44,077 bases of DNA, from sequence record JN984867; one strand, written 5' to 3'. The notes beneath the pieces were generated by a model, which had not been told where the DNA came from, did no database searches, and saw nothing but the letters and a program-made list of their open reading frames with translations. Below, piece after piece: positions 4,955 to 39,085 of this stretch (positions are counted from its first letter, which is position 1; every line of letters begins with the position of its first letter). This DNA comes from Shigella phage EP23. A program made the position numbers and the translations under genes.

Positions 4955-5066
4955 CCCGTCCGCAGACCCCGACGAGGATTTGATGATTGACGTGAAAAAT
5001 ATGGAATGCGGGGCGAAGCTGAGGGCGCAGGTCCTGGAGTTGCAGCAAATAATTAAGGGGCCGTAA
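4827..5066 (+). CDS. o-spanin lipoprotein (Rz1-like), overlapped architecture
   Basis: Signal peptide plus lipobox (LIVVLMLSAC|GSS) and a Pro-rich mature part. Starts inside the i-spanin gene in another frame and extends 112 nt beyond it. Alternative start at 4836. Confidence 0.75.
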   Translation: MLNMLRALTALIVVLMLSACGSSNVPLMPLTESALRPPCKFDSPSADPDEDLMIDVKNMECGAKLRAQVLELQQIIKGP

Positions 5067-5077
5067 TGGCCCCTTTT
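5055..5077. terminator. hairpin terminator between convergent genes
   Basis: AAGGGGCC-GTAAT-GGCCCCTT followed by TTTT. The o-spanin stop codon lies in the loop. The convergent minus-strand gene ends at 5080. Confidence 0.6.
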
Positions 5078-5079
5078 CG

Positions 5080-5844
5080 TCAGCGCGGAATACCGCAAAT
5101 CTCGTTGAGAGTTTTCACATCCAGCGCCACCGCCGTGGATTTTGGCTTGTCCGGGTATGGTATGAATTGCTCAACTTCAGGCCATGCCTTAATCAGCTTC
5201 TTGTCAGTATTGTGCAGGTCCAGCACACCGGTAACGGTGAGTTTGAACGCATCATACTTCGCGCGTAACTCGCGACGGGCTTTGTCGTTGCGGTCCAGGC
5301 GTTTACAGAAATCATGATCTGCCGGGTAGTCTACGCGACCGCGTGGAAGATATATCGGCAGCGCTTTCCCGTCCTCGTCCACTTCGCACACTGACGCGAG
5401 CATAACCGTCTCGAACCCCGGAACGATATCGCCGAGATCAGGCGCGAGCATATTCATATATTTCTCTTCCCAGTACCCGCGATGTACGCGGTATTGGCGA
5501 CCGTCACCGCTCAAGGACAAGGTGCGAACATTTCCGCCTGCGTTGATTTCGAAAGTGGCGTCGTAAACGCTGCCGATACCCTTCGGACGGTCGGTGTTAT
5601 AACTATACGTCGCCTTGTTGGTGTATACGCTGACGCCGTACATCTGCGACTGGTCATCGAGGATTAACAGGATATGCTCGCGTAGCGCGGCGAATGTGCG
5701 AATGCCGTCCGGCATACAGTCCAGCGTGATTGCGTACGCCAGATCGCGGGAGTCCATCATGATTGATTTGGCTTCGGTTGCGATTTCGTGGTCGCGCAGG
5801 ATGTTAGCCAGGATCTGATTTTTAATGTCTTTCGTCAGTCTCAT
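5080..5844 (-). CDS. hypothetical protein (254 aa), second gene of the antisense island
   Basis: Long ORF with SD GAGGA 8 nt upstream of its ATG. No motif I can assign. Confidence 0.6.
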   Translation of the reverse strand: MRLTKDIKNQILANILRDHEIATEAKSIMMDSRDLAYAITLDCMPDGIRTFAALREHILLILDDQSQMYGVSVYTNKATYSYNTDRPKGIGSVYDATFEINAGGNVRTLSLSGDGRQYRVHRGYWEEKYMNMLAPDLGDIVPGFETVMLASVCEVDEDGKALPIYLPRGRVDYPADHDFCKRLDRNDKARRELRAKYDAFKLTVTGVLDLHNTDKKLIKAWPEVEQFIPYPDKPKSTAVALDVKTLNEICGIPR

Positions 5845-5925
5845 TTTTGTGTCCTCGTTGTTGGGGCTTTCGCCCCGTTTGGTTTAGTTGAATTTGATGC
5901 CGCCACCAACAGGCCGCTTTGTTCG

Positions 5926-6438
5926 CTACAAACGCATCGGCATGATAACAAGGAAGGCCCCACCTTTGAACGACACACGTGTCGCCTTGTCGACCCCCCG
6001 GAATTCCAGTTTTAAGCTATCAAACTTACGGTCGAACAATTTAGCAATTTTGAAGGCGTCGGATAGGTATGCCCCATTAAACCCGATAGCCTCCACTTTA
6101 GCGCTGGCGAAAGACGAAACTCTACGCCAGTCTGGGAATCGTCCGTCTATGTTCTCTACGGGCAGGGTCCCTATTAATACGTCTTTACTATCAAAGAACG
6201 CTGCGGAGGTGTCGTCAATGTTGCAGTATTCGAATTTAGCAGGTAAGCGGCCTTTAATTGATACTATTTTACTTTCACCTTCGGGAACAACCGCGGACCC
6301 TAAGAACAAACGATGTCCGTCGGAGGCCACAATGAAGCCTTTCTCGTCGAAAAATACACCATTCAGATAGTATCGCACGTCATTAGTTGCGGCGCACATC
6401 ATAGCGGCTTTAAGATCGGCATAGTTAACTTTAATCAT
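5926..6438 (-). CDS. truncated DnaN (beta sliding clamp)-like protein, 170 aa
   Basis: Contains DVRYYLNGVFFD, ASDGHRL, DGRFPDWRRV, IGFNGAYLSDAF and a C-terminal VIMPMRL. These match E. coli DnaN blocks DVRYYLNGMLFE, ATDGHRL, DGRFPDYRRV, IGFNVSYVLDVL and VVMPMRL. Start trimmed from the track value (6492) to the ATG at 6438 (or 6444) behind SD GAGGA. Confidence 0.75.
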   Translation of the reverse strand: MIKVNYADLKAAMMCAATNDVRYYLNGVFFDEKGFIVASDGHRLFLGSAVVPEGESKIVSIKGRLPAKFEYCNIDDTSAAFFDSKDVLIGTLPVENIDGRFPDWRRVSSFASAKVEAIGFNGAYLSDAFKIAKLFDRKFDSLKLEFRGVDKATRVSFKGGAFLVIMPMRL

Positions 6439-6467
6439 TATCATTTCCTCGTTGTTGGTGTGCAACC

Positions 6468-6497
6468 AATATAATGCAACCAACATCTGCAATGCAA
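6468..6497 (-). promoter_or_regulatory. sigma70-like promoter for the antisense island
   Basis: On the minus strand: TTGCAT-18 nt-TATATT. TTGGTTGCA boxes abut both sides of the -10, giving TATATTGGTTGCACACCAAC, which nearly repeats at 39515-39534. Confidence 0.55.
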
Positions 6498-28851: not shown

Positions 28852-29110
28852 CCAATAAATCGCAGTCGGATATGTTGTCGATAACGCGAACGTCAGCACC
28901 GCGGCGGGCCATTCGCTCATGTTCACGTACCTGGTGCGGCTTCGGTTTTCCTCCGGGGCGCTTCACTTCGACGAACACTATTTTGCCGTTGATGATAATA
29001 ATCAGGTCGGGCGCACCTGCGCGCCCCTCCCATGCCAGTTTTCGGCAGAATCCGCCAACATCTTTCACCCGTCTCATCAGGTGGCTTTGAATCTTGCCTT
29101 CTGGTGTCAT
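28832..29110 (-). CDS. VRR-NUC domain nuclease
   Basis: 92 aa. GAPDLIIIINGKIVFVEVKRPGGKPKPHQVREHERM matches the VRR-NUC core (D...EVK). Its ATG overlaps the polymerase stop by 1 nt (TAATG). Confidence 0.8.
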   Translation of the reverse strand: MTPEGKIQSHLMRRVKDVGGFCRKLAWEGRAGAPDLIIIINGKIVFVEVKRPGGKPKPHQVREHERMARRGADVRVIDNISDCDLLVAELVA

Positions 29111-32100
29111 TACTTGCGGTAGCGATACATGCAATCGCCCTCTGCGGCAAGTGGGAAGCCTTTCGCCCAAACCGGCAGGTCGCACATCAGCGCGCACAAC
29201 TCCTCGGTTGTGTAGTCGTCGGTATCCGGCACTTCGGTTATCAGCTCATCGTGTACGGAAAGTACGATCTCATACCCCGCAGCTTCAACGCCAGGCATGG
29301 ACCATGCGAGAATATCGCGGCACAACGCCTGTACGATGTTTTCCGTCAGTTTGCCGCCGTAGGTATACTGGAATCCCCACTGGCGCGTCGTCTGATTCTC
29401 GCCCTGATATTTAATGCGTGTGCTGGTGCGCTTCTTGCCGGTGTCTTCGTCGATCTCGGTCGTGACAGACAGCGCGATGCCAGGGTAGCTCATGATGCGC
29501 CCTGACGGCAACTCAATTTTAAGCCACCACCCCGCCGCGTTCGGGTCGTCGCGCTCCTCGTCGAAGGTCGGGTCATGCTTCGCCTTCGTTCGAACAATTT
29601 TGAGCGCTTTCCTGCCATCCGGGCGAACGTTCGCGCCAGCCCAGTACGCTTTGCCCGGATTGCGGATCGCGCAGAGCACCGCGTCCTCCAGTTCGGCCCA
29701 AAAGGCTACCGTCATCGGGTGAGACTCACGCCACATACGTTTGATCGCGTCACACGTCAGCCACACGTTTTTCGGCAGTATGTAAGTTGGGCGCTCGTCT
29801 TTCTTGCCAGGCTTCGGCGGGCGCTTCTCCTCGTTAATGCGAGCGTACTCATAACCCCGCTTCGCCGCCGCCCAAATGTGATCCGGGAATGTGCCCTTCA
29901 TGACGTCAGCCATAGTGTAAAGGTCGAGGCCCAGGTTTTTAGCGAACTGCAAGAACGCCGCGACGCCGCCACCATAGCCCAGGCCAAGCTCGCAGTTATG
30001 CGCCACCAGAAAACCAGACTTAGACGCAATAAGGAACCGGTTTCCGTCTTCCACATCAATCAGGTCGTAAACCGGCTCGCAATAGGTTAACTTCCCGTTC
30101 CAGTTCAGCAATGCGGGTAAGGGCTTCATCGTACTTTCTCTGAAGCTCGGGCACGCTGCGCCGGTTACGGCAGTTTTCCGAACGGCTGACAAACCGAAGG
30201 TTTCCAGGCTCATAGTCGCCGTCTGTATCGATCCTGTCCATTTCGAAGTCTGGCTTATCCCAGCCGTCCAGCGTTTGAACGTAGAGAAGAAACGACCTTT
30301 TATCTCTCTTCCATTCGTCACATACGGCAATCCCACGACCGCCGTAGTTTTTATACCCTTTGGCGCGGGGGTTTGTCGTTCGTGATATTGCCGCTGACAG
30401 CCGGTTGAGTAGCCGCGTTCTGTGCGCATCGTCTGGCATTGCGTCATCGTAGCAAAAATACTGTTTACGATACCGCTTTGTCGCTTCAATTGCGCAGAGG
30501 TTGCATTGGGATGTTTTACCCCTTCGGACGTTGTCATACCCGACGCGTCCTGGCATCGCTCCGCAATCACATTGGGCCAGCAGTTGTCTGTGACCCTGTC
30601 GTTTTGGTAATTCGCGCAGGATAACCAGGCGTCCATACCTCTCGCCAGGGCGCGGACCATCGTGCACCTGTCTGAAACGAGTTGCCTTGCCTCCTTCCAT
30701 GAATGCGTCAAGATTTTGTGGTCTTCTGTCATCAAGACCCCGTCCACGTCTATCACTGGTTTCCACCCCATAAGGTGCGCGCCTTTTGTACTCACCCATT
30801 TTTCGCCGTTCCATACTTTATCCGTTGATGTTACGGCCATAATATCCTTGAACCCGCCATTGGTCAATACTTGGGTATGGCGGTGCAAGCAAGCCTTACC
30901 GATCTGGCGTAAGTCCTTGCGGTTGGCTTTAATGTAATCCGGGTCAAGGCCGAACATCTTACCGGCAGTCTCGCAATAGATATCGCGACCGGCCTTAAAG
31001 ACCATTAACGCTGTTTTCTCGCCAGCGATCCAGGCAAGTCCACGCCCTTCCACATTGGAGTAGTCCGCTACGACAAACTTCTTGCCCTTCGCCGGAATAA
31101 TGCACCCGCGAACGGTCGAGGCCGTTAGCTTCGATATGTCATACGCCCAGTGTGCGGTCCCGCGTAACAGGGAGTTGATGCCGTTGGTGAGCATGTGCGA
31201 CCGGACCCAAAACGAGACGTCGCTTTCACCCTCGCGGCGTTTAATCTTCCCTTCGTGGTCGTCGCTGTACTCGCCACGCGCCAGGTTTTGAGGCTGGAAG
31301 CCTTTGCCCGCCCAGCGCAGCGTGCGCTTTGCGCCGCCATACTGAAGACACCCACGGCGGCGACCATCTGCGGATAAGCCGTTAACTAGCGGATTGTACT
31401 TAGTCGATGCCGTTGATGACGCCCCGAGGCGCATTTCGATAAGCGCTTTGCCTTCGTCGGGGAAGTCCGGGTCTTCAAGCAGGTCGTTAAGCGTGGATTT
31501 CTGCGCGTTGTGGATCGTGAACGCCGGGGCGATATCACGCAGGATTGGCAGGAAGTCATTGCCTGTCAGCTTACCGCCAAATCGCTCCCAGGCTTCTTCC
31601 TTCAATTCTTCCTTATGCGCCTGCACCGCTTTGATCGCGGCGTTCGCCAGGTCAACGTCGACGTAGAAGCCGCGGTCGTTAATCAACTGGTCGATGAGCA
31701 GGATTTCATCTTCCTTAGGCGAGTTTCCCCAGTCCGGTATGCGCCAGTAGACTTCACGCATTGCGATAATATCCAGCGCGGCATAGCGCAGAAATTTGGC
31801 CCATTCTTCCGGGTGAGTCTCGCGAGTGTAGCGGCGGATTTTGTAGGTCTTAGGGGTAGGCTTACAGAATCGGTTAATCAGCGCCTTGCCTGCCTTATCC
31901 TTCGCGTGCTCTGCGTCAACGCCCAGAACCTGGCACTGCATATCGAGGCTACCGGGCAGCGCGTGGCGAAAGGCCATAATCATAGTGTCTTCGATCTGGC
32001 TTACCGGCAGGTCAATACCCCACTTCTCGCGGATAACCAGGCGGTCAAACAGGAGGCCGTTAGCCATCACTATTTTAGCCTTCTTGCGGGATACCCGGCG

Positions 32101-32298
32101 GAGCGCCTTGCGCAGTTCACGCGGCATTGTGGGGGATTCAGTGGCATCCCATGTCTGCACGCGGCCCTCGTCTATGGCGTAGGTGCAAATCATAATCTCT
32201 GTGGTTGGGTGCTCCGCGTAGGCGTACGCCCCAACTTTCTTCAGGTCCACCCCGCTAAATGTCTCGGTGTCGAGAAACAGGCGTTCGAAGTCTTTCAT
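29110..32298 (-). CDS. family A DNA polymerase precursor with 3'-5' exonuclease domain, interrupted by an intein
   Basis: Exo I FLDTETFS. Polymerase motif B is split as RQIGKA|C...HN|CELGLGYGGG. Exteins are 30892-32298 and 29110-29994. Confidence 0.9.
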   Translation of the reverse strand: MKDFERLFLDTETFSGVDLKKVGAYAYAEHPTTEIMICTYAIDEGRVQTWDATESPTMPRELRKALRRVSRKKAKIVMANGLLFDRLVIREKWGIDLPVSQIEDTMIMAFRHALPGSLDMQCQVLGVDAEHAKDKAGKALINRFCKPTPKTYKIRRYTRETHPEEWAKFLRYAALDIIAMREVYWRIPDWGNSPKEDEILLIDQLINDRGFYVDVDLANAAIKAVQAHKEELKEEAWERFGGKLTGNDFLPILRDIAPAFTIHNAQKSTLNDLLEDPDFPDEGKALIEMRLGASSTASTKYNPLVNGLSADGRRRGCLQYGGAKRTLRWAGKGFQPQNLARGEYSDDHEGKIKRREGESDVSFWVRSHMLTNGINSLLRGTAHWAYDISKLTASTVRGCIIPAKGKKFVVADYSNVEGRGLAWIAGEKTALMVFKAGRDIYCETAGKMFGLDPDYIKANRKDLRQIGKACLHRHTQVLTNGGFKDIMAVTSTDKVWNGEKWVSTKGAHLMGWKPVIDVDGVLMTEDHKILTHSWKEARQLVSDRCTMVRALARGMDAWLSCANYQNDRVTDNCWPNVIAERCQDASGMTTSEGVKHPNATSAQLKRQSGIVNSIFATMTQCQTMRTERGYSTGCQRQYHERQTPAPKGIKTTAVVGLPYVTNGREIKGRFFSTFKRWTAGISQTSKWTGSIQTATMSLETFGLSAVRKTAVTGAACPSFRESTMKPLPALLNWNGKLTYCEPVYDLIDVEDGNRFLIASKSGFLVAHNCELGLGYGGGVAAFLQFAKNLGLDLYTMADVMKGTFPDHIWAAAKRGYEYARINEEKRPPKPGKKDERPTYILPKNVWLTCDAIKRMWRESHPMTVAFWAELEDAVLCAIRNPGKAYWAGANVRPDGRKALKIVRTKAKHDPTFDEERDDPNAAGWWLKIELPSGRIMSYPGIALSVTTEIDEDTGKKRTSTRIKYQGENQTTRQWGFQYTYGGKLTENIVQALCRDILAWSMPGVEAAGYEIVLSVHDELITEVPDTDDYTTEELCALMCDLPVWAKGFPLAAEGDCMYRYRK
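29995..30891 (-). mobile_element. intein (299 aa) in polymerase motif B
   Basis: Block A CLHRHTQVLTNGGFKDI, block B LMTEDHKILT, C-terminal blocks VYDLIDVEDGNRFLIASKSGFLVAHN followed by the +1 Cys. Boundary codons checked on the sequence: 30889-30891 = Cys, 29995-30000 = His-Asn, 29992-29994 = Cys. Confidence 0.85.
30056..30814 (-). CDS. HNH-family homing endonuclease-like ORF nested inside the intein in the -1 frame
   Basis: Motifs GERYGRLVIL, CDCG...QCNLC, YKNYGGRGIAVCDEW, MDRIDTDGDYEPGNLRFVSRSENCRNRR. 30814 is the maximal ORF start. The ATG at 30700 (214 aa) lies just before the conserved core. No clear SD at either start. Confidence 0.7.
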   Translation of the reverse strand: MERRKMGEYKRRAPYGVETSDRRGRGLDDRRPQNLDAFMEGGKATRFRQVHDGPRPGERYGRLVILRELPKRQGHRQLLAQCDCGAMPGRVGYDNVRRGKTSQCNLCAIEATKRYRKQYFCYDDAMPDDAHRTRLLNRLSAAISRTTNPRAKGYKNYGGRGIAVCDEWKRDKRSFLLYVQTLDGWDKPDFEMDRIDTDGDYEPGNLRFVSRSENCRNRRSVPELQRKYDEALTRIAELEREVNLLRAGLRPD

Positions 32299-32523: not shown

Positions 32524-33198
32524 TTAACGGCGGCGACGTTTACGTGGCGCTTCGTCTTCGTCGTCGTCTTCGTCATCGTCATCACGACGTTTTGACTTTT
32601 TGGACTTACGCGGGCTTTCATCTTCGTCATCGTCGCCCAGGTCTTCGTCGGAACATGAAGACCCGCCACCGCCGAAGGCTTCGCCGTCATCACGGAAGCG
32701 CATACCCAGCAGACCACAGCCTAAGCCTTTGCCGTTGGTATTGTTCCAGGCCCAAATATCTAAGGAAACGTTGCAATAGCAACCGGAATAGATTTCCTTC
32801 CCTTCGATTTCGTCGCCGTCGATGGTCAGACCCTGCTCCGTCTGCTTCTCGCCTTCGGAAGTCTGGATGATCGGCTGTTTGAACGATTTGGCGTTGATGT
32901 ACAACATGCCTTCGAATTCTTCGGTTACTTCGTCGCGCTCGTCACCGTCGCGAACTGCGCATTCCTTAGAATCCTGGGCGTAGTGGCGGTCCATCCACTT
33001 ATCAGCATTCTTCTCGGATTTCAGCTTGTCGGTTAGCACTGCGCGCGCTGCCGCTTCCACTTTGTCCACCTGCGGATCTTCTTTATCAAGAAGAATCACT
33101 GCACGGTATGCCGGTTTTTGTCCATCCTGTTTAGGGGTATCACGTTCCCAAATTTTAAGGAAACATACGCGCACATTTTTCAGGTTGACTTTAGCCAT
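32524..33198 (-). CDS. ssDNA-binding protein (DUF2815 / gp2.5-like), inferred
   Basis: 224 aa. The N-terminus MAKVNLKNVRVCFLKIWE and the position between the DUF2800-type nuclease and PolA match the known DUF2800-DUF2815-PolA module. Mixed acidic/basic C-tail. Start trimmed to 33198 behind GAGGA. Confidence 0.6.
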   Translation of the reverse strand: MAKVNLKNVRVCFLKIWERDTPKQDGQKPAYRAVILLDKEDPQVDKVEAAARAVLTDKLKSEKNADKWMDRHYAQDSKECAVRDGDERDEVTEEFEGMLYINAKSFKQPIIQTSEGEKQTEQGLTIDGDEIEGKEIYSGCYCNVSLDIWAWNNTNGKGLGCGLLGMRFRDDGEAFGGGGSSCSDEDLGDDDEDESPRKSKKSKRRDDDDEDDDEDEAPRKRRRR

Positions 33199-33263
33199 TT
33201 TCCAATTCCTCATTTTCACATGTATCGGGGTTATTGGAAGCCACCCCGTTCGGCTTGGTTGCT

Positions 33264-33292: not shown

Positions 33293-33531
33293 GCATTTTC
33301 ATTAAAAAGATTTCGGGTAACGTAGTTGGTCGCGTTCTCGATCCAGCTTAACGGCGGGCGGTTGATGTTCTTCTCCACCCAATCGACGGCAGCTTCGCTA
33401 TAGCCGTCATCCAGCCAGCGGGTCGGATGTCTAATCATCCATGCCACCATTAACACGCCTTGCACACAATGCAGGATAAAGCCCAGCGCGCCGATAACAA
33501 ACATCAATAAGATTGCGAATACTTTATTCAT
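33289..33531 (-). CDS. small membrane protein (80 aa)
   Basis: Two hydrophobic helices (VFAILLMFVIGALGFILHCVQGVLMVAWMI). Confidence 0.5.
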   Translation of the reverse strand: MNKVFAILLMFVIGALGFILHCVQGVLMVAWMIRHPTRWLDDGYSEAAVDWVEKNINRPPLSWIENATNYVTRNLFNENA

Positions 33532-34954
33532 TGCTTAAGTCCTCGTCAGTAGCTACAGACCACGCAGGGCGCGGGTCGTCGATGGGTGCTAATACCGGTT
33601 TAGCTGGTGCGCGCGTGATTTTATCACACAGCTTCGCCCATACTTTCGGCTTCTCGTCCTTCAATACCTTCTCGGCATCAGTAGGGCTGAGTAATGTTTC
33701 TTTGTACATCACATCGCGCTTGATCCGGGCCTTCGTGAAGATTTCAATCACTTCGCTTTCGTCCGCCCACTTGCGAATCCCTTCCTTACCTGCAACCATC
33801 TTGAGGCCCAGCGATTCGCCGTCGCCCGCCATCACAGCCTTGAATACCGCGGACTCGATAGCCTTGATGTGCTGGCGCATTGCGTCCAGGCCTTCATAAG
33901 CCTTGCGCAGTTCCGCGGCGGTCATAGCGCCGGGGGCCGCTTCTTTCTTGCCACGCTTCGCACGTCGTGCCGCTTTGCGGGCTTCGCGGGCCATATTGCG
34001 GTCGTGATTGGCGCATTCTTCCTCTGTCGCAATACTCACGTCGTCGCCCAGGTCTTCGTCTGTTGCCGTTGGTGGGGTCATCGTGCCGATTGCAGCCTTA
34101 GCGCGGGCGCTACACTGATCCGCAAATCTGCACCACTGACACGCATCAACGCTCGGTCGGAAGTCGGCGCGGGTGAGTCCCTTTTTTCCGCGGGAGTACG
34201 CTTCCAGGGCGGCGATAGCACGCTTGGACGCAAACTTAGCGAATATCTCCAGGGCTTCTACCGAAATATCCCACTCCGACGCCCCGCCGCAATACGGCTG
34301 GAAGATAACAAGGCGCACGGTTGTAATGTCGTACATAGTTTTCAGCTTGCGCAGCAAGCCCAGCGCATACAACATAAGCTGTTTGTTTTCTTTCGCCTCG
34401 ACCTTATGCCGCCCCGTCTTCAGGTCGCCAACAATCAGCATGTACGTGCCGTCGGTCTTCTTCATGACCATGACCATATCGGCAGTACCGAACGTCTTAA
34501 CCCGGTTGCCGTCGATCTCGAAGCCTGAGTGAAGGACGCGGGTCAGATCGGCGCGCATCTCAAGCTGAACAAACTCCGCCACTTCGAGGAGCGGTCGCCA
34601 GTGGTCGATGTACGCGTCGCACTGTTTCACCATGTCGTCGTTGACCAGTACGCCGCCTTTCGGTGCTTTCGGGTGGGCCTTTACCGGCCCCTTACCTTCG
34701 TTCTCTACGTAGCACCCTTTGTACGTCTTAGCGGTTATCAGCTTCTCCCCGGCAATGATGCGGTTTAGCACCACTTCAGATACGGTGTGCATACTCGTAC
34801 CGTTAATCGCCGCTTGCCCGGATTCGTTCGGGATATCTTTTTCCACCACCAGGGCGGCGGGACACCCCATCCATTTTTTAGCACCGGATGGGCCAAGTAA
34901 TGAGTGTTCCGTATTACTACCGGATTGCGTTTTACGTTTTGGTTTAATCGCCAT
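33524..34954 (-). CDS. DUF2800 / Cas4-like PD-(D/E)XK exonuclease
   Basis: 476 aa. LLGPSGAKKWMGCPA N-terminal motif, GDLKTGRHKV, C-terminal Cys cluster CQWCRFADQC. Confidence 0.75.
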   Translation of the reverse strand: MAIKPKRKTQSGSNTEHSLLGPSGAKKWMGCPAALVVEKDIPNESGQAAINGTSMHTVSEVVLNRIIAGEKLITAKTYKGCYVENEGKGPVKAHPKAPKGGVLVNDDMVKQCDAYIDHWRPLLEVAEFVQLEMRADLTRVLHSGFEIDGNRVKTFGTADMVMVMKKTDGTYMLIVGDLKTGRHKVEAKENKQLMLYALGLLRKLKTMYDITTVRLVIFQPYCGGASEWDISVEALEIFAKFASKRAIAALEAYSRGKKGLTRADFRPSVDACQWCRFADQCSARAKAAIGTMTPPTATDEDLGDDVSIATEEECANHDRNMAREARKAARRAKRGKKEAAPGAMTAAELRKAYEGLDAMRQHIKAIESAVFKAVMAGDGESLGLKMVAGKEGIRKWADESEVIEIFTKARIKRDVMYKETLLSPTDAEKVLKDEKPKVWAKLCDKITRAPAKPVLAPIDDPRPAWSVATDEDLSNE

Positions 34955-36820: not shown

Positions 36821-39085
36821 ATGAGCTTAATTAAATTCGCTGTAACACGACCCGCTAAAAAAGGCGAAAAAGCCAGGGCGGAAAACTTCCAGATGACCAC
36901 CGATGAATTTTTCGAATTTATCAATGACGCGAAAGAAATATCATCGGTGCATATCAACAAGACCGAGGATAAAGCGGAGTATGCGCGCCGCAAGCGTAAG
37001 GCCGATGGCATCGTAGCGTATACCAGTGACGGCTTACGCCGCAAGACCAGCGCGGTGGACCGCTCGATCCTGTTCTTTGATATTGACCGCACCGACACTC
37101 GCACCTTACGCCGCTGCCGTAAGGCGTTCATTGACGCGGGTCTGGAACACGTATTCCACACAACCACCGGCGACCGCCACCCGCTTAAAGGCGGCACGCG
37201 TTGCGCTCGCTTCCTGGTACTCACTGATAAGCCGGTCCCGGCTGAAGACCTGGGCCGTGTCCAGTATGCGCTATTACATCAACTTGGTCTGTCGGATGTG
37301 GACTTCGACGATTGCACGAAAGACACAAACCGCCTGATGTACCTGCCGCACCAGCAATCGGTTATTAAGTGCCACTACGGCAAACGTGCCCGCGTCCGTC
37401 GTCTGCTTCGCCTGGCGGATACGCTTGGCGTGGAGAAGGAAGAAGTACGCCGCGAGCTTACCCAGGGCGACGACGCAGTGGCGGACGGGATTCTGGACTG
37501 GTGCTTCCAGGCAGGATTTGAGGAGTTATCTTCCGGTCGCGGTTATGAAGTGCCATGCCCGAACGAACATCTGCACAGCGGCGAAGGGTCGACGGCTATC
37601 ATGGTCAAGGATGGCGAGATCCGTTTCAAGTGTATGCACACAGGCAACGAGTGTTGCTCTGAGCTAAATAGACACCAGCACCTGGCGCTACGTCTTATCG
37701 GGATACCGGACCACCTGAACGTCGAGCCGCACAACATGTCGCGTAAGCAAATCGCCGCCATCCTGCCAGGTCTGGACGACGAGGAAGTCGAATCCTTATA
37801 TGATCATATTGTTGATGCAGTTGGCGACGGCGAAGAATACGGCGTGTGCACCGATGCGGATCTGGATAACGAGCCGGTCGCACTATTCAGTAAGCACGAC
37901 CCGATCATCGAAGGCCTGGTCAACTTCAAATCGACCTGGTACATGGCTGGCGAGTCGAACATCGGTAAATCGTTCTACGTGCTGGGCCAAATGGGCGCGG
38001 TTGCCGCGGGGATTCCGTTCGGCGGTGCGAAGGTCGTCCAGTCTCATTGCTTCTATTTCGACGCGGAAGGTGGCGAAGCCTCCAACCAGCGTAAGGAAGC
38101 ATTGCAGATCAAATATGAGCACGACCTGGACAAGCTGCACATTATTGACCTGCAATCACGCGGCTGGGATATCACCAGCAAATCAGGCTTGCGTGAAGTT
38201 ATCAGCTTCATCAACCGCACCGCTAACGGCGAGCCGGTTGGCCTGGTGGCGTTCGACTCACTCAACCAGACTGTTGCGCTGCGGTCCGCCGATGCAAAAC
38301 CGTTCGACGAGAACAACGCCAGCGATATGGGCGAAGTGGTCAAAGCGCTGAAGGCCATTGCGGAAAATACAGGCGGCAGTGCGGGCGTCATCCACCACCC
38401 GGCGAAAGGTGCAAACGGCCGCAGATCTCCCCGTGGGTCCGGCGCGCTGCATGGTGCTGTCGATTCTGCGTTCTTCCTGGAGCAACCGGACGACAACCAG
38501 CCAGGTCAATTGAACCTGTATCACGAAAAGGCACGTAACGGCATCAAGCAAGCGCCGCGCGGCTTCGTCCTGCTCAAGTGCAAGGTTAAGGTGGATCTCC
38601 GCAAGTCCGAAGCGTTCGAAGCCCACCAGTCCACCAGCACCGGGCCAGACTTCGGCGATGTGGTTGCCGGTTGGGACGTCAAACCAATTGCGTCCACCCC
38701 GCGCGACGAGACTCTATACCTCGTACCGGTAGCCCTGGCACCGTTCGCGATAGAACAGGCGAAGGCGGCGGGCAAAGCCGCAGTTAAGGAAGAGAACACC
38801 GCCGGTCCGCGCAACGAAAAAGAGAAAGTGCTTTATGCGGCCCTGGAAAAACTGATGGCAGATAACCCTGACCATACTGGATTCAGTAAATCGGCAATTG
38901 TACGCCAGGCGGGACTCGCTAAGGGTGGCACTTCGACGAAGGCAATCGACGATATGGTCGAGCGCGGCGTGATTGGTTTCTATACAGACCCGCACACCGG
39001 GGCCATATATGGGTCGTCGAATTTAGTCATCAAATCGGAGATCCCCATAACGCTTTCGGCGACCGATGACGACCTGAAAGACTAA
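36821..39085 (+). CDS. primase-helicase (N-terminal primase/polymerase-like domain, zinc finger, RepA/DnaB-like ATPase)
   Basis: 754 aa. LFFDIDRTD, CPNEHLH...CMHTGNECC, Walker A GESNIGKS, Walker B VAFDSLNQ. Confidence 0.8.
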   Translation: MSLIKFAVTRPAKKGEKARAENFQMTTDEFFEFINDAKEISSVHINKTEDKAEYARRKRKADGIVAYTSDGLRRKTSAVDRSILFFDIDRTDTRTLRRCRKAFIDAGLEHVFHTTTGDRHPLKGGTRCARFLVLTDKPVPAEDLGRVQYALLHQLGLSDVDFDDCTKDTNRLMYLPHQQSVIKCHYGKRARVRRLLRLADTLGVEKEEVRRELTQGDDAVADGILDWCFQAGFEELSSGRGYEVPCPNEHLHSGEGSTAIMVKDGEIRFKCMHTGNECCSELNRHQHLALRLIGIPDHLNVEPHNMSRKQIAAILPGLDDEEVESLYDHIVDAVGDGEEYGVCTDADLDNEPVALFSKHDPIIEGLVNFKSTWYMAGESNIGKSFYVLGQMGAVAAGIPFGGAKVVQSHCFYFDAEGGEASNQRKEALQIKYEHDLDKLHIIDLQSRGWDITSKSGLREVISFINRTANGEPVGLVAFDSLNQTVALRSADAKPFDENNASDMGEVVKALKAIAENTGGSAGVIHHPAKGANGRRSPRGSGALHGAVDSAFFLEQPDDNQPGQLNLYHEKARNGIKQAPRGFVLLKCKVKVDLRKSEAFEAHQSTSTGPDFGDVVAGWDVKPIASTPRDETLYLVPVALAPFAIEQAKAAGKAAVKEENTAGPRNEKEKVLYAALEKLMADNPDHTGFSKSAIVRQAGLAKGGTSTKAIDDMVERGVIGFYTDPHTGAIYGSSNLVIKSEIPITLSATDDDLKD

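Follow-up and report, generated by a model that had tools for sequence, protein, structure and literature searches.

A 170-residue DnaN relative of Shigella phage EP23 belongs to a large phage family of mini beta-clamps that retain the peptide-binding pocket

The peptide-binding pocket of the bacterial beta clamp is a hub that coordinates polymerases, the clamp loader, mismatch repair and Hda, and it is also an antibiotic target. In Escherichia coli DnaN, the pocket that receives clamp-binding motifs comprises subsite I (R152, L155, T172, G174, H175, R176, L177, P242, R246, V247, V360 and M362) and subsite II (H175, N320, Y323, V344, M362, P363, M364 and R365), and mutation of I272/L273 renders beta monomeric (PMC11139829). 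The interface between clamp and motif is exploited by the MuC protein of phage Mu (PMC12867686), and phages can also encode clamps of their own: those of the KL1/PA73 type carry a full-length 386-aa DnaN homologue beside the polymerase, and phage AH2 has a 209-aa form (PMC3483164). For short phage beta clamps, a full-text literature search returned annotation-level mentions only and no functional or structural study. Here we describe such a protein, the mini beta-clamp (hereafter mini-clamp) of Shigella phage EP23, encoded by an intact 170-codon open reading frame (ORF) at 5926-6438 on the minus strand of sequence record JN984867. The window, meaning the whole stretch of 44,077 nucleotides that was analyzed, is a nearly complete Dhillonvirus genome. 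The gene is a member of a catalogued but uncharacterized family, in which the reduction of the clamp to its pocket is a family-wide trait.

The relationship of the mini-clamp to DnaN was supported by both sequence and structure comparisons. When all PDB sequences were searched with phmmer, beta sliding clamps were the sole matches and the E. coli beta clamp was recovered at E = 4.5e-8 to 7e-8, with mini-clamp residues 10-143 pairing with DnaN 140-282 and a weak second domain pairing residues 111-170 with DnaN 311-366. A profile built from 50 homologues matched E. coli DnaN with 106 bits (E = 8e-35). The AlphaFold2 monomer predicted from the same 50-homologue alignment reached a predicted local distance difference test score (pLDDT) of 92.8 and a predicted template modeling score (pTM) of 0.89, and the best 50 Foldseek matches of this model in the PDB were all beta clamps, 48 of them from E. 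coli, at a probability of 1.0 and a query-normalized template modeling (TM) score of 0.62-0.68; these matches span ~257 alignment columns, a figure that reflects a large internal gap. The similarity of the mini-clamp to DnaN is far beyond chance, and the presence of the clamp fold, with its beta-alpha-beta-beta-beta repeats, is confirmed. Among curated models, Pfam detected the central clamp domain alone, at 20.3 bits versus a gathering score of 27, and the NCBIfam dnaN model (TIGR00663) gave 23.5 bits versus a cut-off of 137.65. The mini-clamp fails the curated full-length DnaN models by a wide margin and does not have the three-domain, ~366-aa form to which Pfam PF00712, PF02767 and PF02768 correspond. 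A first-pass annotation of this DNA had proposed a truncated, 170-aa DnaN homologue and had named a clamp-like fold in structure prediction as a test of that proposal; the homology searches, the model and its exclusively beta-clamp top matches bear out both. The motifs quoted in that annotation were all present and aligned as it had stated, with SDGHRL corresponding to DnaN 172-177 and IGFNGAYL...VIMPMRL to DnaN 317-366.

According to the model, the protein consists of DnaN domain II followed by a single half-domain that ends in the DnaN C-terminal strand. The first motif is complete (strand 2-5, helix 6-15 and three strands), and in the second motif a short loop with Pro (residues 62-70) takes the place of the helix, so that the second inner helix of domain II is predicted to be lost in the mini-clamp's own subfamily. 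The connector DGRFPDWRRV follows, with a short helix, and then helix 122-135 and a beta meander leading to VIMPMRL. Two equivalent alignments are available for this last portion because the two halves of DnaN domain III are mutually homologous: the half-domain matches DnaN 251-294 contiguously and DnaN 311-366 separately, and in the contiguous case the family profile runs through DnaN 139-294 and then needs the last strand only. Either alignment leaves one beta-alpha-beta-beta-beta half-domain, with ~60 residues of domain III missing. The loss of these residues, which had been described as a skip of about 60 positions, is thereby upheld, and the skip itself is only one of the two equally valid ways of aligning the sequences. 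Domain I was absent in the phmmer and profile alignments, and the earlier estimate that ~1.5 clamp domains are kept agrees with the sequence, the profile and the model alike. Also missing from the alignments is the domain III segment with the I272/L273 dimer-interface helix or, alternatively, its counterpart half. With both domain I and this interface segment gone, the mini-clamp would be unable to form the canonical two-subunit, six-domain beta2 ring.

The pocket is the part of the clamp that is kept. Sixteen of its 18 review-listed residues are identical in the mini-clamp, the exceptions being T172, which is replaced by S, and V344, which is replaced by D; the latter is one of two pocket residues reported as non-conserved (PMC11139829). 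Across the 50 homologues, whose alignment has a mean column identity of 29%, 19 positions are invariant or nearly so (V21, R22, Y23, Y24, L25, T39, D40, G41, H42, R43, G99, F101, P102, D103, R106, Y124, M166, P167 and R169). Twelve of these 19 are review-listed pocket residues, and the other seven (V21, Y23, Y24, D40, G99, F101 and D103, equivalent to DnaN V151, Y153, Y154, D173, G239, F241 and D243) lie within the same four motifs. Since the conserved positions cluster in the pocket and its motifs, selection appears to be concentrated on the pocket region, in line with the earlier suggestion that the domain II/III peptide-binding pocket is retained. At the codon level, the ratio of nonsynonymous to synonymous substitution rates (dN/dS) was 0.16-0.24 between the mini-clamp and three Dhillonvirus orthologues at dS of at least 0.22, and these comparisons show purifying selection; the closest pair, EP23 and the locus L006, gave a dN/dS of 0.64 at a dS of 0.036 and is too similar to inform.

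The family to which the mini-clamp belongs is extensive. The protein matched phrog_3007 at E = 4.9e-55, its residues 1-170 covering profile positions 2-186 of 190, and tblastn detected homologues in 247 GenBank phage records, from phages of Salmonella, Escherichia, Klebsiella, Vibrio, Serratia, Burkholderia, Pseudomonas, Shewanella and Microcystis. The closest relatives are gp7 of Sodalis phage SO-1 (90.6% identity) and the homologues in Escherichia phages TheodorHerzl, rolling and WF5505 (86-87%). A scan of IMG/VR found at least 464 relatives, and an exhaustive profile search recovered 344 clusters at 50% identity with E <= 1e-30, the best 150 of which have lengths of 169-312 aa and each cover the whole profile. 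In 85 mini-clamp loci the ORFs encode 169-258 aa and were intact at every locus examined, and BFVD holds many similar phage models (163-250 aa, query-normalized TM up to 0.88), among them models from phages of Actinobacteria and Bacillus. The mini-clamp family is old, large and standalone and not a recent truncation; the rarity implied by the first-pass annotation is refuted by the 247 GenBank records of a phage family that is in part annotated already. Many family records are in fact labeled 'DNA polymerase III beta subunit', 'beta clamp domain protein' or 'sliding clamp' (Serratia phage Eta gp10, for example, is among the annotated members), and others, such as NC_054651.1 and NC_021534.1, bear the name 'RusA-like Holliday junction resolvase', taken over from PHROG. 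A Pfam scan of the mini-clamp at E up to 10 turned up no RusA family, and the fold search gave beta clamps solely. These results lend the label for phrog_3007 no support; it looks like a propagated annotation error, and the practical consequence is that a widespread database label for the family appears to be wrong.

Candidate phage-encoded ligands of the pocket were scarce. A strict clamp-binding motif had five matches in 6,004 mechanically called ORFs, all of them internal and scattered, and EP23 proteins yielded loose matches only (QQLIIF in Dam, and QLEVF in a protein of 156 aa). The PolA proteins showed no clamp-binding motif, and the EP23 proteins and the neighbors of mini-clamp genes showed no convincing one. 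The DUF2800 nuclease contains a conserved QL[MQN]LY (residue 192 of the EP23 protein encoded at 33524-34954 on the minus strand; homologues in L009-L014 and L059), which was not counted as a clamp ligand, as it matches what we take to be the QxxxY motif of RecB/Cas4-type nucleases. A uniformly basic DNA-binding character is not apparent: the isoelectric point (pI) of the mini-clamp is 8.8, and values in the family spread from 4.8 to 9.2.

In the wider family, 133 of 199 homologues (P0027-P0213; the EP23 protein is not one of them) have a C-terminal tail after the xPxR end. Sixty-three of the 133 tails end in -AA, compared with a mean of 5.8 and a maximum of 16 in shuffled tails, and 38 tails contain P-x-W 9-15 residues past xPxR, against a mean of 6.2 and a maximum of 14 after shuffling. 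Tails in -AA are reminiscent of ssrA-type ClpX degrons, and the PxW motif might be bound by the pocket or by a partner. For P0046, a tail-bearing homologue, the AlphaFold2 model offered no evidence of tail docking, with a tail pLDDT of only 53-67.

We tentatively favor, as a real possibility that falls somewhat short of likely, a role in which the mini-clamp would serve as a soluble receptor of clamp-binding motifs and would either compete for the clients of the host clamp or redirect them. Domain II and the half-domain would rebuild the hydrophobic pocket that docks QLxLF-type clamp-binding motifs; the protein would be expressed from a small independent transcription unit, and the soluble pocket might then compete with the host beta clamp for its clients or redirect them, through sequestration or recruitment. 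Candidate clients include clamp-loader delta, Pol III alpha/epsilon, Hda, Pol II/IV/V and MutS/MutL, and the protein would then be an accessory factor with which the phage takes over the host or hijacks its replisome. The clamp loader is a plausible target because delta prefers monomeric beta, binding it ~50-fold tighter than the dimeric ring (PMC11139829). A host clamp client would be the simplest candidate ligand, since the pocket is invariant, the neighbors and replication strategies vary, and no convincing phage motif emerged. Regarding the neighbors, all-against-all ORF clustering detected no universal neighbor family in the 85 mini-clamp loci; the commonest families reach 26 of the 85 and follow phage lineage, and a universal conserved neighbor was rejected. 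Moreover, members of the family are carried by phages that have a PolA module and also by phages in which no polymerase was found, and the ligand would therefore be one that all bacterial hosts supply.

Several considerations weigh against such a receptor. The conserved pocket could just as well accommodate a motif on a phage protein, and the half-domain may need a partner surface. Position N121, equivalent to DnaN N320, is variable in close orthologues, being K in one and A in another. Several lineages embed the mini-clamp gene in phage PolA replication operons or overlap it with them. Finally, indiscriminate sequestration of Pol III would be harmful to phages that seemingly use the Pol III of the host. 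General inhibition would work against such phages themselves, and a selective target (Hda, translesion polymerases or MutS/L) or recruitment is therefore more likely in them. Among the functional ideas put forward as speculation in the first-pass annotation, a decoy or adaptor would fit best and a poison subunit worst.

Other roles can be set against the soluble receptor. The mini-clamp could be a replisome subunit, that is, a tether or processivity factor for a family-A polymerase, acting in one of two ways: as an oligomeric ring of a new kind, such as a tetramer whose 1.5-domain subunits add up to six domains, or as a non-ring tether resembling herpesvirus UL42. Gene order speaks for this role, which we nonetheless consider rather unlikely. 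In enterobacterial prophage-like loci the mini-clamp opens the PolA-module operon, the order along the locus being CI-like repressor, mini-clamp, a 300-aa protein, DUF2800 PD-(D/E)XK nuclease, Enc34-type single-stranded DNA-binding protein (SSB), Nmad5 and PolA. In L059 the mini-clamp ORF and the 3' end of the PolA gene overlap, and in L061, which has the same PolA module, the mini-clamp lies between SSB/DUF2800 and an SNF2 helicase; EP23 itself carries this module at 26.9-39.1 kb. The polymerase-associated DnaN homologues of the KL1/PA73 type and of AH2 (PMC3483164) also favor a replisome function. Environmental PolA phages form a separate setting, with the mini-clamp in a small operon flanked by the terminase gene and by the replication genes. 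On the opposite side, the mini-clamp is absent from most Dhillonviruses, as judged by a comparison of mini-clamp presence in which the SSL-2009a locus was examined. Its carriers include Skatevirus BS5, Vibrio Roufvirus pYD38-A and Serratia phage Eta, for which the deposited annotations, and for BS5 also a Pfam scan of ten larger ORFs that left one 495-aa protein without assignment, revealed no DNA polymerase; these phages instead have primase, helicase, exonuclease VIII, recombinase and SSB. The PolA proteins were devoid of a detected clamp-binding motif, the pI range of the family is at odds with a uniformly basic DNA-binding face, and the domain II inner helix that is missing from the model would leave a gap in any DNA-lining channel. 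Were the mini-clamp nevertheless to form a new ring, the known architectures of sliding clamps would be widened.

Two further observations concern the PolA module of EP23. Its DNA polymerase (29110-32298, minus strand) is 1062 aa long, with Pfam DNA_pol_A matching residues 393-469 alone (50.7 bits) and much of the chain left without assignment, and homologues in related modules have 647-705 aa. An acidic C-terminal tail motif, approximately (F)[DE]D[LIV][ST], is common to the Enc34-type SSB, the DUF2800 nuclease and the primase-helicase, in forms such as DDFDDIS, NDFDDVS, DEDLSNE and DDDLKD. These tails resemble the acidic tails that dock gp2.5 and gp4 of phage T7 on the T7 polymerase.

A different possibility, distinctly unlikely in our judgment, is an anti-defense decoy, in which the pocket would trap the clamp-binding motif of an immunity protein of the host, one that relies on the beta clamp to detect or act upon replicating phage DNA. 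The Dhillonvirus locus is what makes it conceivable. The mini-clamp gene of EP23 runs antisense to the head genes around it, the spanin and head-morphogenesis genes lying to one side and those for the scaffold and the major capsid protein to the other, and the flanking annotations confirm the antisense placement within the structural gene block that had been noticed earlier; in Kagunavirus, the mini-clamp is a lone antisense cassette among head genes, with its own terminators. In EP23 the gene shares a hypervariable two-gene locus with Nmad5, and in other Dhillonviruses the cassettes are exchanged for unrelated genes. In SSL-2009a, positions 5900-6452 are replaced by 319 bp with an unrelated 109-aa gp08; phage rolling has the mini-clamp and Nmad5 in swapped order; L007 has the mini-clamp without Nmad5, and L006 has a 121-aa ORF and the mini-clamp, also without Nmad5. 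The breakpoints between these variants, located by blastn, fall in or beside a conserved 12-mer, CAACAACGAGGA, which suggests that cassettes are exchanged by recombination at this sequence. The Dhillonvirus mini-clamp is an optional, shufflable cassette in an accessory locus. The promoter attributed to the gene in the first-pass annotation proved not to be gene-specific: the region is kept in Dhillonviruses whichever cassette follows, being common to all variants of the two-gene locus, and its match to the consensus is weak. A promoter scan gave weak sites only, in numbers no greater than in shuffled sequence.

The gene that adjoins the mini-clamp gives the anti-defense decoy a further argument. 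To our knowledge, no defense system depends on a clamp-binding motif, which counts against it, and PADLOC returned no defense-system match. Dhillonvirus Nmad5 is non-essential and toxic to clone, and it is the site of mutations that allow escape from the Tmn defense system, the gain-of-function change being K216E (PMC11846954); EP23 Nmad5 has K at position 216. The same study makes no mention of a clamp-like gene (PMC11846954), and the stable placement of the mini-clamp inside replication or ParB operons in other lineages also disagrees with a decoy of this kind.

It is a long shot that mini-clamps assemble into an unseen DNA-tracking platform, either a closed ring of 1.5-domain subunits (a tetramer, for example) or a complex on a ParB-like CTP-gated clamp; if they did, small phages could use its beta-type pockets to draw clamp-binding enzymes of the host to phage DNA without the host beta2 ring. 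A partner role with an adjacent DNA-bound protein, ParB-like or Nmad5, in partition, modification or marking, the pocket docking the partner or recruiting host enzymes, strikes us as very unlikely. Genomic context provides some ground for it, as a ParB-like helix-turn-helix (HTH) gene lies just upstream on the same strand in 16 of the 85 loci and in Serratia phage Eta, Eta, Skatevirus BS5 and Vibrio phage pYD38-A being the carriers of this pairing in which no polymerase was found, and Nmad5 adjoins the mini-clamp in EP23 and shares its operon in prophage-type loci. EP23, however, has no ParB-like gene, Nmad5 and the mini-clamp occur independently, and the 16 ParB-linked loci come mostly from one broad lineage, so that inheritance and not coupling may explain them. 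An obligate partnership with Nmad5 was rejected, as the two genes lie within 6 kb of each other in only 5 of the 85 loci and close Dhillonvirus relatives carry one without the other.

A poison subunit, which would form a heterodimer with a host beta monomer and block ring closure, is suggested by the homology to DnaN and is most improbable, given that both sides of the head-to-tail interface (domain I and the I272/L273 helix of domain III) are missing. A decaying, functionless gene fragment, which the length below that of DnaN and the optional presence in Dhillonviruses might evoke, has a negligible chance against the uniform lengths in the 85 loci and in the best 150 of the 344 clusters, the intact ORFs, a dN/dS of ~0.2 at dS of at least 0.22, the invariant pocket and the confidently predicted fold.

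The features of the mini-clamp gene and its surroundings are collected in Table 1. The ATG at 6438 is the better start of the ORF, which ends with the stop codon TAG at 5926-5928: a GAGGA is located 8-9 nt 5' of this ATG, a second in-frame ATG two codons upstream, at 6444, is too near that GAGGA, and the homologues begin with MIK or MIR.

Table 1. Positions of the mini-clamp gene, its sequence motifs and related features (EP23 numbering unless another locus is named)
Feature	Position	Strand	Basis
Mini beta-clamp coding sequence (DnaN domain II and one half-domain)	5926..6438	-	phrog_3007, DnaN similarity, AlphaFold2, Foldseek
DVRYYLNG, codons 20-27 (DnaN 150-157; pocket R152, L155; V21-L25 invariant in the family)	6358..6381	-	Alignment and pocket mapping
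SDGHRL, codons 39-44 (DnaN T172-L177; forms subsite I, including the bridging His175)	6307..6324	-	Alignment and pocket mapping
DGRFPDWRRV, codons 98-107 (interdomain connector, DnaN 238-247; pocket P242, R246, V247)	6118..6147	-	Alignment and pocket mapping
Single half-domain, codons 118-170: IGFNGAYL (DnaN N320, Y323), helix 122-135, beta meander, C-terminal VIMPMRL (DnaN V360-L366)	5929..6087	-	Second hidden Markov model domain (DnaN 311-366) and model secondary structure
Nmad5 gene (PF18757), 254 aa, co-oriented, downstream; independent cassette	5080..5844	-	Pfam E = 2.2e-58
Terminator-like hairpin closing the leftward two-gene unit (mini-clamp and Nmad5)	5055..5075	-	Sequence scan
12-mer CAACAACGAGGA holding the Shine-Dalgarno sequence, before the mini-clamp and again before the Nmad5 start	6446..6457 and 5852-5863	-	Sequence
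Promoter-like TTGCAT-N18-TATATT upstream of the leftward unit; predicted by eye, below scan criteria	6468..6497	-	Sequence
Mini-clamp cassette limits	5900..6452	.	blastn breakpoints and annotations
ParB-like HTH gene beside the mini-clamp, L087	8125-8943	-	Neighborhood
ParB-like HTH gene beside the mini-clamp, L089	4882-5703	-	Neighborhood
ParB-like HTH gene beside the mini-clamp, L090	2241-3056	+	Neighborhood
Protein with acidic tail motif, EP23	32524-33219	-	Also L009-L014, L059
Protein with acidic tail motif, EP23	33524-34954	-	Also L009-L014, L059
Protein with acidic tail motif, EP23	36821-39085	+	Also L009-L014, L059

Together, these observations describe a clamp pared to little beyond its pocket within a large and ancient phage family. 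If the mini-clamp indeed traps or redirects clamp clients, it would constitute a natural, genetically encoded competitor of the pocket and a new way for phages to take over the host, mirroring the phage proteins that bear the motif. In comparison with E. coli DnaN (PDB 2POL/1MMI), the mini-clamp has the same clamp fold, a domain II that is homologous throughout, a near-identical C-terminal strand and 16 of the 18 pocket residues; it differs in having 170 aa instead of 366 and in lacking domain I, ~60 residues of domain III and the second inner helix. The other members of phrog_3007 (SO-1 gp7, TheodorHerzl, rolling, WF5505 and Eta gp10) share the architecture of the mini-clamp, none being different in kind, and the closest are 86-91% identical. 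A likeness may also extend to the herpesvirus proteins UL42 of herpes simplex virus and UL44 of cytomegalovirus, which have the clamp fold, form no closed ring and bind the polymerase via a pocket near the interdomain connector. UL42, however, combines two full domains with a strongly basic DNA-binding face, whereas the mini-clamp family is not uniformly basic and no polymerase motif was found for the mini-clamp. The complex of delta with monomeric beta I272A/L273A (PDB 1JQJ/1JQL) may be regarded as a functional analogy, as it presents a non-ring beta with an accessible pocket (PMC11139829), although that mutant keeps three domains and the domain III loop responsible for extra contacts with delta is also missing from the mini-clamp. 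Mu MuC, finally, involves the same host interface of clamp pocket and motif, with the parts reversed: MuC supplies the motif, and the mini-clamp phage supplies the pocket (PMC12867686).

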